64,000 nucleotides of DNA from a virus, in IMG/VR virus record IMGVR_UViG_3300042465_006864, positions 1 through 64,000 of that record; one strand, given 5' to 3'. This document shows positions 40,505 through 48,348 of this stretch, in pieces. The number at the start of each line of letters is the position of its first letter. Within the stretch, counting starts at the first letter, position 1. The notes under the pieces were generated by a model that was not told where the DNA came from, did no database searches, and was given only the letters and a program-made list of their open reading frames with translations. The position numbers were made by a program, and so were the translations under genes.

Positions 40505-41591
40505 ATGGGAAAAAAAATAATCAAAACAGCGCAATTTATCACAGTAGCTGCATTCGCAGTCGTAATCGTAACATTCATTCCGAAAGCTTGCACACGACCA
40601 GATAATGCTACAAAATTGCTAAATCAACAAGGATATACTGACATCAAAATCACAGGATGGCGACCAATGATGGCAGGTAAAGATGATTCGGTATCGACTG
40701 GATTTGAAGCAACATCGCCCAGTGGTCAGCGAGTAAGTGGAGCGGTAACAAGTGGATTGTTATTTAAAGGCTCGACCATCAGATTTGATTAATCACTGAC
40801 AAACAAAAAAATGAACACGCGATATACAACAATCGGAACTGATCAAGTGCCGCATATCAAAAAACTAATCAATTGGTTGATTGCGGAAGTAATTTCTGCT
40901 GGTGGAGATGGTGATGCCTTATGGTATTCACGATTTTATTCTGTTGATGAAATCTTTTCTATTCTAAAAGAATGTGATCTTTATGATTTTACTATTGACA
41001 AACAAGATAATCGTATTACATTTGGCACGGGGCAAGAGCAGATAGCATCATTCAAATTGCAGTGTAAACCAAAACCAAAACCTTTATATCCAGCATGGGT
41101 GGACAAATTTTAAAATTATGGAATTCATTAAAGAACACGTAAACAAAGACTGGCTACCAGTCGTCGAAAAATTTCCTAAGATTTTCTTAGAACCATCAGA
41201 GTATGTTATTGATATTTGGGAAAAATACTACAAAGATTTCGTCAAGAAAGAAGATATGGTGAATCTACGCTATGGTTTTGAACATGGTATCGGTTGGAAA
41301 GATATTGTAATCGGCTTTTGTGAAGATTTACAGAAGCTTGCTGAAAAAGCTGCCGCAGAAGGTCACACCTTTCAATACAAAGGATGCATTATTAAAGAAA
41401 AATTTGGCAAATTCACTCCCCAAGGTGATTTGGAAAAAAGTGAGGGTGCATGGGAAATCTATCGCGATGAATATTATGGTATTTGTCGCAAATGGGAAGA
41501 AAAATCCTTGACAGTCTGCGAAGTCTGTGGTAAAGATGGTGAGTTGCGCAGCACAGGATGGTGGAAAACGCGCTGCGATGAACATAACTAA
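40505..41591 (+). other. three hypothetical CDSs (40505..40792 membrane-anchored, 40811..41113, 41118..41591)
   Basis: The last has KEKFG...CEVCGKDG...C; downstream of TTGACA near 40455. Confidence 0.6.
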
Positions 41592-41595
41592 TAAC

Positions 41596-42024
41596 ATGAG
41601 AGAATTAAAATTCCGCATCTGGGACAGACAAGCAAAAGCATGGGCTGAGAACGATTGCTCGCTGCATTGTTTCAGTAATTGGCAGATTGATCCATTCACT
41701 GGCAAACTGACTGATTTTGTTGGTGCAATTGACGGTGATCGTGAAACGCGCTATAATGCAAATCCTGCTCCCGATTATTATTTTCGTGGCAGTGAGATTG
41801 TGAATGAGCCGAGATATGTTCTTGTTCAATTTACTGGCATGAAAGACAAAAATGGAGTAGAGATTTATGAGGGAGACTTTATTTGTTTTAATAGAACAGA
41901 AGGTCTTTATAGTGATCAAAAGTATCCAATTGTTGCGGCAACTCATCCTTATGTTCAAAACCGTTCTCATTTAGGCGAAGTAATTGGCAACAGCTTTGAA
42001 AACCCTGAACTATTAGAAGCATGA
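41596..42024 (+). CDS. YopX-family protein
   Basis: MRELKFRIWD...QFTGMKDKNGVEIYEGD...EVIGNSFENPELL. Confidence 0.9.
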   Translation: MRELKFRIWDRQAKAWAENDCSLHCFSNWQIDPFTGKLTDFVGAIDGDRETRYNANPAPDYYFRGSEIVNEPRYVLVQFTGMKDKNGVEIYEGDFICFNRTEGLYSDQKYPIVAATHPYVQNRSHLGEVIGNSFENPELLEA

Positions 42025-42374
42025 ACAGAGAAATTAAATTTAGAGCTTGGCGCGAAAATAAAATGCATTATAACATTACAACCGCTCATTATGAGCATAA
42101 TGCAATGAGCGGAAGCGGGGGAGATTTGTGGGATTTTGCAGAATGGATGAAATGGAGCAAAGTCATGCAATACACTGGTCTTAAAGACAAGAATGGTGTA
42201 GAGATTTACGAAGGTGATATTCTCAAACACAATCATAAAGTCCAACAGGTTGAATCTAAGTTAGATTGGAACTGCGGATGTTGCGGATTTGTTTATGGAT
42301 ATAACATTGAAGATCCCAATGATATTGAAGTCATCGGCAACATCTTCGAGAACCCTGAACTTTTAAAACATTGA
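42021..42374 (+). CDS. YopX-family protein
   Basis: REIKFRAW...MQYTGLKDKNGVEIYEGDI...EVIGNIFENPELL. Confidence 0.9.
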   Translation: MNREIKFRAWRENKMHYNITTAHYEHNAMSGSGGDLWDFAEWMKWSKVMQYTGLKDKNGVEIYEGDILKHNHKVQQVESKLDWNCGCCGFVYGYNIEDPNDIEVIGNIFENPELLKH

Positions 42375-42799
42375 GAGAAATAAAATTCAGAATTTGGGAT
42401 AATCTAAAAAAAGAGTGGGTGACTAACAAATACATCTGGAGAATGAAAACCGATGTAAACGGTATCGGTGAAATTCATCCACATACATTCTATTGGAAGC
42501 AACATCCACATGGATTGAATTATCAACAATACACTGGTCTGAAAGACAAAAATGGGAAAGACATTTACGAGGGAGATATTGTAAACATTTTAAAAGAGAA
42601 TAAATGTTATCCTGTGAATTTCGGCAATTGTTATGCTTCTGCTGATGACAACTATTGCGGCACAGAGTGTTTTGGATACCATATAGACGGGCAAATTATG
42701 GGATCGCGTGCAAGAAATTGGGGAAATGGAGCATTAATCAGTGAAAATATGGAAGTCATCGGCAACATCTTCGAGAATAGTGAACTTTTAAAACAATGA
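42371..42799 (+). CDS. YopX-family protein
   Basis: REIKFRIWD...QYTGLKDKNGKDIYEGDI...EVIGNIFENSELL. Confidence 0.9.
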   Translation: MREIKFRIWDNLKKEWVTNKYIWRMKTDVNGIGEIHPHTFYWKQHPHGLNYQQYTGLKDKNGKDIYEGDIVNILKENKCYPVNFGNCYASADDNYCGTECFGYHIDGQIMGSRARNWGNGALISENMEVIGNIFENSELLKQ

Positions 42800-43897
42800 C
42801 AGGCAACGAAACAATCACAATTACAATAGAAGACTCCGATAGAAATATTCGCCTATCCACTCGTTATTCATTTTTGAAAGCAGATGGAGCGGTCATCACA
42901 AAAGGAAAATATCACAATTTAGAACTTGACAATCTGATTGAAAGATTTGATAATTATCGAAGACAAAATAGTCAGAAAAATGAGACCCTCTAAACAAAGA
43001 CAAAAAGAAGATTTGGAATTAGTCATCGCTGCGATGCGCAAAAACAACTTCCAACCTTACGAAGAAAAACTAAATCCATTTACTGAAGGAGTTCGCAAAG
43101 AAAGATTCGAGCGATACTATCACCGCGAACATAGAAGCTTTATCATTGCAGACAATAACTGGAAAGATTTATGCGAAGTATATGGATACCCTTACGAAAC
43201 ACCAAAACTATGAAATGGCAAGAATACAAAGAACATATGCGCGAAGAGTGGGAATTCCACAAACGCAATCCTGAACTGTTTTTTGTTTGGGCGGCATACG
43301 CAACAGCGATAATCATCGCTCTTTTCTCTGACAATTAATCAACAAAATGAAGCATAAATTTTATTATTACGAATACTCCGACGATGGTGGGCAAACTTGG
43401 ACAATGGGCGACTATCGCCGCTATTTGATGCCCATCATGGAGTTGGTAAGAGAGTGTCCTTATCCATCTCGCGTACTTAATCAAGATGATGAACAAATCA
43501 GTGAAGAAGAAATCCGCGAAACGCTCGAACATATGAAAACAATGGAAACAATTTTTGAAAAAGATATAATTCGCTGGGAGGAAAATATGAAATGAAACAG
43601 CTAACACAATATCGAAAACACGGCAATGATTTTTTATTGATTAAAAGATCAGGCAACGTAGGACTTTTCCAAGAAAAGAAATACAACAGCTATGAAGTAA
43701 TCACCATTCAATCACACAATGGGCGCGAAATCATGGGCAACGTAATTCCTCCAGCAGAATTTGCTCCTAGCGATGAATCTTGGGGATCAAAAGGATGGAC
43801 ATACACAATCGAAGCTGACGCTTTGAAAAAATTTGACGAATTGTGTGAAATTTACTTGACACCTAAGCAAGCAAAACCTACAATACCTGAGACATGA
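42796..43897 (+). other. run of small hypothetical CDSs
   Basis: 42796..42993, about 42980..43213, 43347..43595, 43592..43897. Confidence 0.55.
43856..43884 (+). promoter_or_regulatory. sigma70-like promoter
   Basis: TTGACA-N17-TACAAT, 9 nt before ATG 43894. Confidence 0.8.
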
Positions 43898-44580
43898 AAG
43901 AAATTACTACAAACTTATTAATCGCGATGGGTGATACTCATGGAAATTGGGGAGCTTGCATCGAAACTCTACAAGAGTATTATATTCGTGATGCTGTCGT
44001 CCTACACGTAGGAGACGTAGGCATCGGCTTTCTCCCTAAAGAAACACAAGAAGACATTTTAAAATCACTCAACTATGAGCTAGCAGAAAGAAATGTTAGA
44101 ATGTTTTGCATCAGAGGAAATCATGATGACCCACAATACTTTTCGGGCGAGTATGAATACTCCAACATTGTTCTTCTTGCTGATTACTCAAAAATGCTAA
44201 TTAACGGCAAAAAGTTTTTGTTTGTTGGTGGGGCGATTAGCATTGATCGCATCATGCGAACTCCTAATAAGTCGTGGTGGTCAGACGAAGTATTTGTTTT
44301 GGATGAGTCTCGCGCCGAAAAGTGTGACGTTCTTATCTCTCATACCGCTCCAAATTGGATTGGTCCAATCGACAAAATTGGAATTGGTTGGTATACAGAG
44401 CGTGATCCCAATTTGTGGGAAGAGTGTTGCGCAGAAAGATTAGCGATGAATCGTTTGATTGAAATCACAGAACCAGATCAACATTTTTGCGGTCATTTCC
44501 ATCGCAGTCAATCAGCAGTAAACGACAAATGCATTAGTCGTATTTTAAATGAGAATGAAATTTGCGAAATAATTTTGTAA
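43894..44580 (+). CDS. calcineurin-like metallophosphoesterase
   Basis: GDTHG, VGDVG, RGNHD, GGAISID, SHTAP, GHFH. Confidence 0.9.
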   Translation: MKEITTNLLIAMGDTHGNWGACIETLQEYYIRDAVVLHVGDVGIGFLPKETQEDILKSLNYELAERNVRMFCIRGNHDDPQYFSGEYEYSNIVLLADYSKMLINGKKFLFVGGAISIDRIMRTPNKSWWSDEVFVLDESRAEKCDVLISHTAPNWIGPIDKIGIGWYTERDPNLWEECCAERLAMNRLIEITEPDQHFCGHFHRSQSAVNDKCISRILNENEICEIIL

Positions 44581-44626
44581 AAAATAAAAATGGAAAACCT
44601 TCCAAAAAAAGTGTATTATAATTCAG

Positions 44627-44683
44627 ATGAACTATTATCCGACAAATGAACAACCACAAAACACATCCATTCGGGTGCGGTAA
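44627..44683 (+). CDS. putative attenuator leader peptide MNYYPTNEQPQNTSIRVR
   Basis: 18 codons directly after GTGTAT/TATAAT (44611-44622); codons match the downstream tRNAs. Confidence 0.7.
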   Translation: MNYYPTNEQPQNTSIRVR

Positions 44684-44717
44684 AGGTTTTTATTTGATAG
44701 CTTATCTTATATAACTC

Positions 44718-44745
44718 ACCTCATCCTAACAAGATGGGGTTTTTT
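44718..44745 (+). terminator. intrinsic terminator upstream of the tRNA cluster
   Basis: ACCTCATC-ctaacaa-GATGGGGT followed by a T-run. Confidence 0.75.
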
Positions 44746-44764
44746 ATTGCTTAAAATTCCAAAT

Positions 44765-44836
44765 GTTCGCATAGTGAAGCGGTTATCACTCTGAGCTTTC
44801 TACTCAGCATCACGGGTTCGAGTCCCGTTGCGAATA
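44765..44836 (+). tRNA. tRNA-Glu(TTC)
   Basis: GTTCGCA/TGCGAAT; CTGAG-CTTTCTA-CTCAG; ACGGG-TTCGAGT-CCCGT. Confidence 0.88.
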
Positions 44837-44842
44837 CTTTTT

Positions 44843-44926
44843 GCCGCGATCCCTTAGTGGTCGATAGGACTTGCCTTGTAAGCAAGATGCTTATGCACAT
44901 CGTCAGTTCGAATCTGACTCGCGGCT
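44843..44926 (+). tRNA. tRNA-Thr(TGT) with long variable arm
   Basis: GCCGCGA/TCGCGGC; CTTGC-CTTGTAA-GCAAG; GTCAG-TTCGAAT-CTGAC. Confidence 0.85.
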
Positions 44927-44977
44927 CATTTTGAAAAATATAGAGTTGAAATAAAGCGAAAAAAAATAAATATTAAC

Positions 44978-45412
44978 ATGAAGCAAAATCATATCAATAA
45001 AATAACTGATGAAGAGTTAATATCTGAATATAATAAAAATCCACATCTTGGTAAAATGTCACATAATTTACGATTACCTATAATTACAATTTGGAGGAGG
45101 CTTAGTAAATTGGGTTATAATTGTTCTTCTCCTAAAAACATTAATAAAATTATACCATTAAATGAAATATTACAAGGTCTGCATCCATATTATCAAACAT
45201 TTAAATTAAATAAACGAATTTTAAAAGAAAAAATACTGGAAAATATATGTGATGTTTGTAAAACATCCGAATGGAATAATAAACCAATCTCTTTGCATTT
45301 GGATCATATAAATGGCATTTCAACTGATCATAGGTTAAAAAATTTAAGATTTTTATGTCCAAATTGTCACTCACAAACAGAAACATATTGCGGAAAAAAT
45401 AAAAAGTGTTAG
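44978..45412 (+). CDS. HNH endonuclease inside the tRNA cluster
   Basis: CDVC...LHLDHINGISTDHRLKNLRFLCPNCH. Confidence 0.92.
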   Translation: MKQNHINKITDEELISEYNKNPHLGKMSHNLRLPIITIWRRLSKLGYNCSSPKNINKIIPLNEILQGLHPYYQTFKLNKRILKEKILENICDVCKTSEWNNKPISLHLDHINGISTDHRLKNLRFLCPNCHSQTETYCGKNKKC

Positions 45413-45492
45413 CTCCAATGACGGTGAATTGGGGCGGGCTGTAAACCCGTTGCCTTCGGGCTGAGTAGGTTCGAATCCTATCTGACACACCA
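45406..45492 (+). tRNA. tRNA-Tyr(GTA)
   Basis: GTGTTAG/CTGACAC-A-CCA; GCGGG-CTGTAAA-CCCGT; variable arm GCC-TTCG-GGC. Confidence 0.88.
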
Positions 45493-45497
45493 TATAT

Positions 45498-45575
45498 CTA
45501 GTCGTGGTGGAGCGGTCTAACACACCTGCTTTGGAAGCAGGAACAACGCAGGTTCAAATCCTGCCGACTAGACCA
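45498..45575 (+). tRNA. tRNA-Pro(TGG)
   Basis: CTAGTCG/CGACTAG-A-CCA; CCTGC-TTTGGAA-GCAGG. Confidence 0.92.
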
Positions 45576-45578
45576 AAT

Positions 45579-45652
45579 TGGACATTAGTGTAATGGTAAC
45601 ACCCAACTCTTTGAAAGTTGTATTGCTGGTTCGAGTCCAGCATGTCCTACCA
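45579..45652 (+). tRNA. tRNA-Gln(TTG)
   Basis: TGGACAT/ATGTCCT-A-CCA (1:72 mismatch); CAACT-CTTTGAA-AGTTG. Confidence 0.9.
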
Positions 45653-45670
45653 ATTTTTTAATCAAATAAA

Positions 45671-47017
45671 TTATCTACTAACTTCTTCCCAATCTAACGA
45701 AGCGAGAATTTTAGCTGGACTTCCACCAGTAGCAGTGCCAGCAGATACGACTAATGACAGTTCGAAAGGCGAGTTAGTTAATCCATTTCTTTCTAATTGG
45801 AATTTAAAAAGAGCCTCCTTTAAAATATCTAAAGATGGACTTGATTGATTTGTTTGGTTAATGAATCCAGCGGCGAGTATTCTACCTCCAGAAATACTTG
45901 TTGCATCTTGTTTATATTCTACCGCAGAATTCGCACCAGCAGAAATCCAATTACCAGTTCCTCCGCTTGTAGTTCCACTTGCAATTATTTTCCATTTAAA
46001 ATTGCCAGTTGTTGTTGGAAGCAGCGAAAGCGCAGTTAAGATGACAATAGCGTCTAATCTTGTTGATTTCAATTTAATGGTGATAACTGGATAGTCAGTA
46101 TTAGTAGTTGTGATTAAATCATAAGGAACTGTAACATCGGTGCTTATAGCTTGTTGAAGACCTCTGAGTTCATAACCACCTTCTGAAATTACAGAAGAGC
46201 ATATTTGTTTTAGCTTACTAGCGCCAGAAGTTGCGGCAGTATTTGCTATTTCATATCTAAGCGGCAAACAAGCGGTGGTAATGTAAGTCGATTCGATGAT
46301 GTTGGCGTGGTGAAAAGTGTGGCATAAAATAAATTTGCCGTCGATAACAAATCCCATCCTCACCGAACCAAGACCCAACCATTCTACATCCATCCACAAA
46401 ATTTGCGCTTTGCTTATGTCTAAAGTAATTCCAGATGCGCCAGTTCCATCTAGTTTATCTCCGTTCCAAGATGATTGTGACACTCTTGTTTCTGTTGCTG
46501 GACTGCCATTAACCAATGAGCGTTCAACAAAATTCAATGTCGAATCCACAAGCTCCAAATACATTCCATTGTCAGCACCAAAATAACCTACTCTTTGTCT
46601 AAGATTAGTTTTCGCGGGAGACATTACAAAAGTGTTTAAGTTAAGTAAACTTTTTCCTGGCTGATAAGCGAAAACTTTTGTTGTTTCTCTAGTAACGAAT
46701 GAACCAGAAGCGTTTGTTACATTCATTTCAATTAGTCCTTGATTTTGATTGAATGAGCCGCTGCCGCTAACTCCACTTGCCATTGACCAAAGATTGTTGT
46801 CGGCGTATCTGTGGCTTGAATCAAATAGCGTAAGTGGAGAAGAGGTTCTCATGCGACCAAACGCATCAAAAGCGGTCGAGCTGGCAGAATTAGAAAAACT
46901 CAAGTCTTGTTGTTCTAAAGGTCTATAATTATCATTTGTTCTGTCATATATGAATGCAATATTTCCAGCAGTATGTGATAATTGAGCAAGGTTTTGAAAA
47001 GTGTATTGATCCGCCAT
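45671..47017 (-). CDS. probable virion structural protein
   Basis: DAFGRMRTS, YQPGKS, WLGLGSVRMGF motifs; S/T/G-rich; GTGTAA at 47026-47031, 8 nt upstream. Confidence 0.65.
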   Translation of the reverse strand: MADQYTFQNLAQLSHTAGNIAFIYDRTNDNYRPLEQQDLSFSNSASSTAFDAFGRMRTSSPLTLFDSSHRYADNNLWSMASGVSGSGSFNQNQGLIEMNVTNASGSFVTRETTKVFAYQPGKSLLNLNTFVMSPAKTNLRQRVGYFGADNGMYLELVDSTLNFVERSLVNGSPATETRVSQSSWNGDKLDGTGASGITLDISKAQILWMDVEWLGLGSVRMGFVIDGKFILCHTFHHANIIESTYITTACLPLRYEIANTAATSGASKLKQICSSVISEGGYELRGLQQAISTDVTVPYDLITTTNTDYPVITIKLKSTRLDAIVILTALSLLPTTTGNFKWKIIASGTTSGGTGNWISAGANSAVEYKQDATSISGGRILAAGFINQTNQSSPSLDILKEALFKFQLERNGLTNSPFELSLVVSAGTATGGSPAKILASLDWEEVSR

Positions 47018-47132: not shown

Positions 47133-48348
47133 ATGAAAGCTTATCAACAAATTTTGGAAAAATCTAATCGCGACCGCTACAAGAAAGTCGGCAAGAAATA
47201 TGTTCTCTGCAACGACTTCGATGCCTACGAAGGATTAGAAAAAGGCTTCTGGTTGGTGAATGTGCGTGAAGGTTGCACTTCTATCAAGAAAATGGTTTAT
47301 CCTGCGAACGCAGAAATCGCCGCCGCCGCAAAACGAAAAGAAGAAAAACTTCTTGATATTATTCGTGAGGCTTCTGAGGCTCGACCAAGTAAACTTCCTA
47401 TTTCTCCAGAGGCTCTCGCTGATTGGAACACATTTATCGCAAAACATGGAGAAGAGTTTTCAATGCTGCAATATCCTTCGTGGCAGGAGAATGCTGAAAA
47501 AATCGTCAAAATACTTCTTGACAAAGAAGATTATTAATGGCAATCTTTCCCCGCAACAATAACTGACATATGACAGAAGAACAAATCGAATTCATTAAAA
47601 AATATTTCTTCAAAAACGAAGAATACGCTGGTTGGGACAATATCGCAACAAGACTTCTTCAAGAAGGTTCGTGTATTGTAGCTGGCAGTAGTAAACTTTG
47701 GCATGGTGGTATTGGAAACTTTATCAAATGCGTCCCTGCTGAAAATGCCATCGGTTGTTCTCTACTAACATTCGATAAAGATTCATTTTTACAATCGGTA
47801 TGGTTCAAAGAGCAAGCAGGTTCTCATATCAAAGCATTAGGACATCAAATCGGCGCTTTAAAGGTTCAGCAATATGCAATTGAACGCTTAGTAGAAAAAA
47901 AATAACTTTTTAAAAGCAAACAAAAATACAAAAACACCCAAAACATGAACATTGACTTCGACAACATAAAACCTATCGACGAAATGAGCGATTGGCAGCG
48001 CGAAAGCGCAATACATTCTGCTCGTTACATTCTGGAAGATGTGAGCATGGAGAAATTGGCAGAAATTACTGGTCTTCCCATGGGTGTGATTTCAGCAGCA
48101 TTCAAAATTATTTTCGTATCGAAAGATGCGGTGGATGAACCGAAGAGAACGACAAGACCAATTAGAATTAAAAAATAAAAACAAACATGAATAAAAACAC
48201 TCGTCAAAGTAGAAACGCTGGCTTCGCTAGCAAAAAAGACCAAAACAACAACGGCACAAAAGTATTCAAAGGTAGTTGTTGCGATACAGCATGGGACGCT
48301 CCTGCTAGCAAACATCGCAGCCGCAAAGTTTACAAGAAGCCACAGTAA
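47133..48348 (+). other. four small hypothetical CDSs (47133..47537, 47570..47905, 47945..48178, 48187..48348)
   Basis: Co-oriented; the last is a 53-aa basic peptide MNKNTRQSRNAG... Confidence 0.55.

Follow-up and report, generated by a model that had tools for sequence, protein, structure and literature searches.

The window analyzed here, a stretch of 64,000 nucleotides (nt), comprises the first 64 kb of the IMG/VR virus record IMGVR_UViG_3300042465_006864, a freshwater phage (whole record 133,831 bp, direct terminal repeats, 38.6% G+C). Upstream of an array of transfer RNA (tRNA) genes it carries a leader that is probably a ribosome-mediated, multivalent transcription attenuator of the trp/his/ilv type. 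From the sequence, a short open reading frame (ORF), a codon match between this ORF and the tRNA array, an intrinsic terminator, a lack of room for a separate promoter, three hairpins with a predicted response to ribosome masks, and the conservation of the sensing codons can be read. The attenuator had been proposed in a sequence-only reading of the same DNA, and it was supported by every sequence-level test that could be run. The features of the leader and the array are all on the plus strand, and the pairings are predicted:

44627-44683: leader ORF, 18 codons plus TAA, reading MNYYPTNEQPQNTSIRVR, open in all three haplotypes of the leader (see below)
44630-44665: sensing codons 2-13 (AAC TAT TAT CCG ACA AAT GAA CAA CCA CAA AAC ACA), 12 of 12 cognate
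44643-44696: 1:2 hairpin (anti-antiterminator), outer stem AAAUGAACAACC with GGUUUUUAUUU, inner stem CAUCC/GGGUG
44673-44726: 2:3 antiterminator, GGGUG.GGU...GGUU with AACU.ACC.CAUCC
44718-44745: 3:4 intrinsic terminator, ACCUCAUC, loop CUAACAA, GAUGGGGU, then a T-run; 8 pairs, 4 of them G-C
44757-44764: scar of a lost tRNA-Asn(GTT) gene, the first letters of which persist (44757-44760), followed by tRNA-Glu
44765-44837: tRNA-Glu(TTC)
44843-44927: tRNA-Thr(TGT)
45406-45652: tRNA-Tyr(GTA), tRNA-Pro(TGG) and tRNA-Gln(TTG)

The ORF from the ATG at 44627 to the TAA at 44681-44683, the terminator with its eight pairs and T-run, and the five tRNAs within 44765-45652 had all been named in the sequence-only reading, and each was found at its place. 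The pairs of the terminator hairpin span 44718-44740, and it was the top terminator-like site within 43000-47000. The distance from the leader stop codon to the terminator is 34 nt, and that from the T-run to tRNA-Glu is 19 nt. The promoter scan revealed no promoter-like site in these 19 nt, and, because the gap is so short and no site is listed there, a separate promoter for the tRNA genes has no room; an independent promoter between 44745 and 44765, which had been named as an alternative, was not found. An intrinsic terminator, and no listed promoter, is thus what lies between the leader ORF and the tRNA genes.

The proposed mechanism would operate as follows. RNA polymerase would transcribe the leader, whose codons 2-13 would serve as a roster of the Asn, Tyr, Pro, Thr, Glu and Gln codons of the array. 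When decoding is fast, the ribosome would reach the stop codon inside segment 2, the 3:4 terminator would form, and the tRNA genes would not be transcribed. When the leader is not translated, the 1:2 hairpin would form first, which would likewise lead to termination. Slow decoding of any of the rostered codons would stall the ribosome over segment 1, segment 2 would be free to form the 2:3 antiterminator, and the polymerase would read through into the tRNA genes. The tRNA products would relieve the stall, and the leader would act as a negative-feedback gauge of decoding capacity. The depletion of tRNAs would presumably be caused by a rare-codon host pool, by host shut-off or by anticodon nucleases. 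A trigger by host anticodon nucleases specifically, which would make the leader a counter-defence sensor, is speculation, and it is much less likely than a homeostat of decoding capacity.

The codon match was the first line of evidence. Nine of the leader codons 3-13 had been counted as cognate to the five tRNAs of the window. This count was confirmed and the match held, but it had been understated, because a tRNA-Asn of relatives provides the match for the Asn codons as well. Among codons 2-13, the three Asn codons are the only ones without a match in the array of the window. Against the six-tRNA array of the relatives all 12 of the codons 2-13 (NYYPTNEQPQNT) are cognate, and all six tRNAs and amino acids are represented, i.e., Asn(GTT), Tyr(GTA), Pro(TGG), Thr(TGT), Glu(TTC) and Gln(TTG). 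The leader is therefore a short ORF upstream of the putatively regulated genes in which codons for the sensed species are clustered.

The statistical analysis was based on a strict set, defined as the 12 codons that are read by the six anticodons. This set accounts for 20% of all triplets of the genome and for 24.8% of the codons in its 89 long ORFs. When the 133,831-bp genome was read in all six frames, only two runs of 12 strict-cognate codons were found, one in the leader and the other in a tandem EPEQQ repeat (58525). In second-order Markov genomes (n = 100) the longest run ranged from 6 to 11, and none of the 100 reached 12. The 36-nt stretch itself is A/C-rich (19 A and 10 C), and mononucleotide shuffles of these 36 nt yielded 12 of 12 codons in the set in 13 of 2,000,000 cases; about two-thirds of the 13 (4.5e-6 of all shuffles) also contained all six amino acids. 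Such a run is missing from both other frames of the stretch, and the cognate run begins right after the ATG and is located directly upstream of the array. A chance origin of the codon match is considered excluded.

Other tRNA arrays were used as controls. Eighty loci were taken from viral contigs that share the gene for a 448-amino-acid structural protein next to the array of the window, and several of them carry large, variable tRNA arrays; 15 further large-phage loci were found via a tRNA-Tyr segment. Among 204 small ORFs that start with ATG and end at most 200 nt from a tRNA, the leader of one relative (L001) had a run of 12, and the next best reached 7, for a set of 23 codons. In a scan that did not require a start codon, the log10 p was -7.8 for the leader versus -4.5 for the next best. 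The leader is a clear outlier among the control ORFs. Several short ORFs in front of other arrays were inspected and rejected. MGIYYS, which precedes a Met-Tyr-Gly block (L006, L008, L009, L015), was attributed to chance; it has 6 codons, runs into the tRNA and has no terminator. MDVILCMNDVNV in front of Ala-Asp-Met-Met-Ile-Val-Asn (L095 1734-1772, also L099 and L102) and MMKGFDMEE in front of Phe-Met-Glu (L103 6446-6475) show a weak cognate enrichment, and no terminator is visible at either. Their binomial p values of 1e-3 to 1e-4 were obtained among 538 ORFs times 8 set sizes, and they were not counted as support. The second tRNA cluster of the genome itself (Met and Arg, from 61407) directly follows a gene and has no leader or terminator.

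Next, relatives of the leader were sought with the phosphoesterase protein encoded upstream of it, in viral and metagenome contigs. The leader was found in four further contigs. Three of them (L001, L002 and L088) represent one haplotype, the L001 type, which is 93% identical to the window over 182 nt, and L086 represents a second further haplotype, which is 98% identical. In the three contigs of the L001 type the first gene after the terminator is tRNA-Asn(GTT) (L001 5089-5164), followed by Glu, Thr, Tyr, Pro and Gln. The window and L086 lost the tRNA-Asn when about 78 nt were deleted at the start of the array, away from the insertion of an HNH endonuclease gene described below, and no other tRNA-Asn was found in the whole genome of 133,831 bp. 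As judged from these sequences, the Asn codons of the leader are explained by the tRNA-Asn in the array of the relatives. The proposal that leader codons track the tRNA set in homologous loci was thus borne out for Asn in three relative contigs. In all, searches with the leader (blastn), the exact 32-nt terminator, the degenerate back-translated peptide, a 30-nt segment of the tRNA-Thr and the phosphoesterase, performed in the fetched loci, the viral contigs and the metagenome contigs, retrieved only L001, L002, L086 and L088, and the collection of cultured phages had no match over the leader.

The differences between the haplotypes were unevenly distributed. When the window is compared with the L001 type, the 42 nt that precede the ATG contain 7 differences, the 42 nt of codons 1-14 contain none, and the remaining 82 nt contain 5 (44670, 44672, 44675, 44684 and 44708; nt 44 to 82). 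Codons 1-14 have the same nucleotides in all three haplotypes, and the terminator is also invariant in all of them. The peptide changes at its C-terminal residues (I>T, V>M). The change from G to A at 44675 converts a U.G pair into a U-A pair, and the pairing is kept with both CAUCC segments. The L001 type has pairs at 44672 and 44708, where the window has mismatches (C and U in the 2:3 helix), and the G of L086 at 44708 gives a G.U pair. In four sequencing runs only the L086 letters were seen at 44684 and 44708.

The minimum free energy (MFE) fold of the 124-nt leader had -25.1 kcal/mol (z -2.09) for the window and -25.8 kcal/mol (z -3.08) for L001. It contains the 1:2 hairpin (nt 17-70), which is present in the MFE of both haplotypes, and the 3:4 terminator. 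The pairings CATCC/GGGTG and 3:4, which had been read from the letters, were therefore both recovered; the inner 1:2 stem pairs CAUCC at 44664-44668 with GGGUG at 44673-44677. A 2:3 antiterminator was also predicted, as had been claimed, but its exact pairing was replaced by a different register, i.e., GGGUG at 44673-44677 with CAUCC at 44722-44726, GGU at 44679-44681 with ACC at 44718-44720, and GGUU at 44685-44688 with AACU at 44713-44716. The CAUCC that GG(G/A)UG contacts in this register is identical to that of the inner 1:2 stem and belongs to the 5' arm of the terminator, and the stop codon of the leader lies inside the 5' arm of 2:3. As predicted folds, the 1:2, 2:3 and 3:4 pairings are mutually exclusive. 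L001-type RNA that was cut before the 3' arm of the terminator was predicted to fold into a long antiterminator (-16.9 kcal/mol, z -2.84), and 2 of 200 shuffles were as good. The predicted energies in the three haplotypes are:

1:2 hairpin: window -14.1, L086 -14.1, L001 type -14.7 kcal/mol
2:3 antiterminator: window -14.7, L086 -15.2, L001 type -16.9 kcal/mol
3:4 terminator: window -9.8, L086 -9.8, L001 type -9.8 kcal/mol

The influence of a ribosome was modeled with a mask that, relative to the first nt of the A-site codon, extended from -15 to +14. In nascent RNA that ended at nt 104, the predicted probability of the upper 2:3 stem was 0.97-1.00 in all three haplotypes when the ribosome was at codons 4-10, it was 0.44-0.49 at codon 12, and it was 0.00 at the stop codon, again in all three haplotypes. 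A stalled ribosome is thus predicted to free segment 2 of the nascent RNA, and a ribosome at the stop codon is predicted to mask it, in three of three haplotypes. For the full-length L001-type RNA the predicted probability of the terminator was 0.88 in the absence of a ribosome; it was 0.01-0.19 when the ribosome occupied codons 2-10 and 0.98 for positions from codon 12 onwards, up to the stop codon. The resulting switch score was 0.77, and none of 200 shuffles of nt 43-90 reached it (largest value 0.45). Masked folding had been suggested as a check, and the balance of antiterminator and terminator shifted in the expected direction. In these models, the behaviour is as expected of a trp-type attenuator, and it is clearest in the haplotype with all six tRNAs.

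The promoter of the leader is less clear. Together with the gene upstream, the region contains the following features:

43894-44580: calcineurin-like phosphoesterase gene (Pfam Metallophos, E 1.5e-15), upstream of the leader
44591-44619, plus strand: promoter-like site TGGAAA-17-TATTAT, 9 of 12 matches, a weak call; overlaps GTGTATTATAAT

The letters GTGTATTATAAT at 44611-44622, which had been regarded as a promoter, are indeed present, but the site listed by the scan is the weak TGGAAA-17-TATTAT, and the L001-type relatives have not retained the -10-like letters. Transcription from TGGAAA-17-TATTAT would start near the leader ATG. The 18 promoter-like sites of the region represent no enrichment over shuffles (13.1 +/- 4.2), and the same is true locally for terminator-like sites (5 versus 3.2 +/- 1.7). 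The scan listed no terminator-like site between the stop codon of the phosphoesterase gene (44580) and the leader, and, therefore, read-in from the phosphoesterase gene is also possible in the window. Between the phosphoesterase gene and the leader, the four relatives L001, L002, L088 and L086 carry an insert (about 220-370 nt) that starts with a near-consensus promoter, TTGACA-17-TACAAT or TACAAA. The insert (L086 664-1040; L001 4690-4905) contains units of about 150-190 nt, a single one in L001 and two in L086, each closed by a long-range stem, and the last letters of a unit are ...CCCA or ...CACCA, with a T-run after them. The units look like a tRNA-like stable RNA. They had no match in Rfam (including a scan of L086 640-1240) or with ARAGORN, and they are absent from the genome of the window.

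No Shine-Dalgarno sequence was found before the leader ATG. This is normal for the phage, because its long ORFs carry one only at the background rate (GGAG, GAGG or AGGA at -20 to -4 in 6 of 119 long ORFs versus a background of 0.07). The regions upstream of the long ORFs of the genome are A/T-rich and G-poor. With respect to read-through, two contigs of 151 nt span the terminator and reach into tRNA-Glu; they come from the RNA libraries of two different studies. The RNA-library data consist of contigs only, they are silent on RNA starts, ends and levels, and uncovered parts carry no meaning; the bridging contigs are a weak hint at read-through, with a possible carry-over of DNA.

Three other explanations of the leader were weighed. 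The codon match needs translation and leaves open what this translation controls. The leader could thus be codon-matched and act post-transcriptionally, on the processing or stability of the tRNA precursor, e.g., via the access of RNase E or RNase P to its 5' leader, or the logic could be reversed, with a ribosome at the stop codon promoting read-through. In both versions termination would not be switched, and the finding that the full-length RNA of the window keeps the terminator at equilibrium under all masks is in accordance with this. However, the hairpin that carries the stop codon in its 5' arm is formed with the 5' arm of the terminator, and the masks result in the classical direction in the nascent RNA of all three haplotypes. 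The L001 type is, moreover, predicted to switch also at equilibrium, which none of the 200 shuffles matched, and the terminator is invariant. Overall, a post-transcriptional or reversed function is regarded as unlikely.

It is very improbable that the hairpin is an ordinary terminator of the phosphoesterase operon, that the tRNAs are made by constitutive leak-through, and that the ORF and its codons arose by chance in an A/C-rich spacer. Such a stretch does favour codons for Asn, Thr, Gln and Pro, there is no local enrichment of terminator-like or promoter-like sites, and an analogous leader is absent in front of the other arrays. In contrast, only 13 of 2,000,000 shuffles gave 12 of 12 codons although they kept the local composition, the run starts right after the ATG and in this frame only, the Asn codons are matched by a tRNA that is found only in relatives, and codons 1-14 are invariant while the flanks vary. 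A product function of the 18-residue peptide, as a small phage protein whose composition results from co-adaptation with the phage tRNAs, would be in agreement with the ORF being open in all haplotypes. It is hardly to be expected, however, because the C-terminal residues change while the synonymous sites of codons 1-14 are frozen, which indicates that the codons or the RNA, rather than the peptide, are under selection. In addition, the coding sequence of the phage uses the 12-codon set for only 24.8% of its codons, and the ORF is interlocked with the hairpins.

Several observations weigh against the attenuator that is preferred here. The window and L086 lack tRNA-Asn, yet the leader lists Asn three times, and the roster is thus out of step with the array. 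No comparable leader was found before other tRNA arrays in the 80 structural-gene loci or in the 15 tRNA-Tyr-segment loci. With no second matched leader, there is therefore no independent co-variation across tRNA sets in these data, and only the Asn case shows co-variation. There are only three leader haplotypes (window, L086 and L001 type) with 5 variable positions, which are therefore too few for statistical covariation. In the full-length RNA of the window at equilibrium, the terminator was favoured under every mask (P 0.59-0.98), the switch score was 0.14 and was reached by 10 of 200 shuffles, and the antiterminator of the window is the weakest of the three haplotypes. The ribosome footprint used for the masks was assumed by us. 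The promoter call is weak and not conserved. An overlapping ORF of 22 codons in another frame, MNNHKTHPFGCGKGFYLIAYLI (44646-44714), is open in all haplotypes; it ends 3 nt before the terminator stem and is not codon-matched (7 of 21 codons cognate). Lastly, translation of the ORF, stalling and changed read-through are steps that we infer.

The neighbourhood of the leader has further characteristics:

44978-45412, plus strand: HNH endonuclease gene, inserted between tRNA-Thr and tRNA-Tyr and outside the switch

The match of this gene to Pfam HNH (E 0.0036) is below the curated cut-off, and it resembles annotated T4-like HNH and homing endonucleases. It is absent from the L001-type relatives, and one contig from a DNA run joins 44932 to 45430 with 31 other letters in place of the HNH region; the insertion is therefore polymorphic in nature. 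The tRNA-Thr(TGT) has a length of 85 nt and a long class II-like variable arm, which is unusual for a Thr tRNA. Read side by side, the window and the L001 type have the same tRNA-Thr sequence, and its 30-nt core was seen in no contigs other than these.

On the other side of the array, on the minus strand, the gene for the 448-amino-acid virion structural protein (45671-47017) follows, which has 61-65% identity to proteins of cyanomyoviruses and of Puniceispirillum phage HMO-2011. Several of the closest relatives of this gene (loci L006-L085) have tRNA arrays on both sides, with very different content. The locus appears to be a hotspot of tRNA gene turnover. In a further contig (L089 4684-4964) the phosphoesterase gene is directly followed by a homologue of the window ORF 47133-47537, and the leader, the tRNA array and the 448-amino-acid structural gene are therefore missing as a block. 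At 41527-42799 the window contains three tandem paralogous ORFs, which all end in a ...GN(I/S)FEN(P/S)ELL... motif, and the third of them matches Pfam YopX (E 5e-20).

tRNA genes are generally regarded as promoter-controlled. If the attenuator is true, the decoded species would regulate their own synthesis via the speed of the ribosome, and there would be a direct feedback from elongation to tRNA supply. It would also explain the timing and dosing of phage tRNA arrays. The leader would represent a compact multi-codon sensor of tRNA availability of about 120 nt, which could be used in reporters. In addition, the codon content of a leader would predict the tRNA gene content and would record the gain and loss of tRNAs, as in the present case, in which it pointed to the missing tRNA-Asn.

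Leader attenuators with more than one kind of sensing codon are well known, e.g., the thr leader (Thr and Ile) and the ilvGMEDA leader (Ile, Leu and Val), and trpL and hisL belong to the same type. The phage leader shares with them a short ORF, clustered codons of several kinds, the mutually exclusive (here predicted) 1:2, 2:3 and 3:4 pairings, a terminator just before the genes, and a stop codon that is placed so that a terminating ribosome would mask segment 2. In contrast to them, it is phage-encoded and its targets are tRNA genes instead of biosynthetic enzymes, its roster spans six amino acids, one per downstream tRNA, and the proposed feedback would run via tRNA supply and decoding rate and not via amino-acid synthesis. 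There is no sequence homology to the enterobacterial leaders.

In E. coli pheST, the phenylalanyl-tRNA synthetase genes are controlled by leader-peptide attenuation (pheM leader), and in this case, too, a component of the decoding apparatus and not a biosynthetic pathway is the target. However, pheST involves one amino acid and a protein product, whereas the phage leader has six codon families, and the RNA products would themselves be the decoded species. The T-box riboswitch also couples the status of tRNA to a choice between terminator and antiterminator before translation-related genes, but it directly binds one uncharged tRNA via a specifier codon and the T-box sequence, and neither a ribosome nor an ORF is involved. 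A specifier loop, T-box and Stem I were not recognized by the Rfam covariance model in 43500-46500 or in L086 640-1240. The Rfam cmscan of 43500-46500 with E up to 10 revealed the five tRNAs and chance-level matches only, with no leader family and no T-box.

In full-text searches of openly accessible main texts, no description of leader-peptide attenuation of tRNA genes was found. On balance, we lean towards a class of phage 'tRNA-roster' attenuators, in which the leader lists the tRNA genes that follow and the tRNAs would be transcribed on demand with product feedback. The closest regulated counterpart found is the trn operon of Anabaena sp. PCC 7120, a stress-induced long tRNA array that is reported to be controlled by direct repeats in the promoter and by the repressor TrcR (PMC8421152, PMC10272220). 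The words 'leader', 'attenuat' and 'terminator' do not occur in the main text of the former. The two systems are alike in that an accessory tRNA array is off in the default state and turned on when translation is impaired (in the phage, as proposed), and they differ in that the Anabaena operon is cellular and under promoter and TrcR control, whereas the phage array is phage-encoded. Taken together, we consider it probable that the leader is composed of the parts of trp-type multivalent attenuation, applied to tRNA genes.

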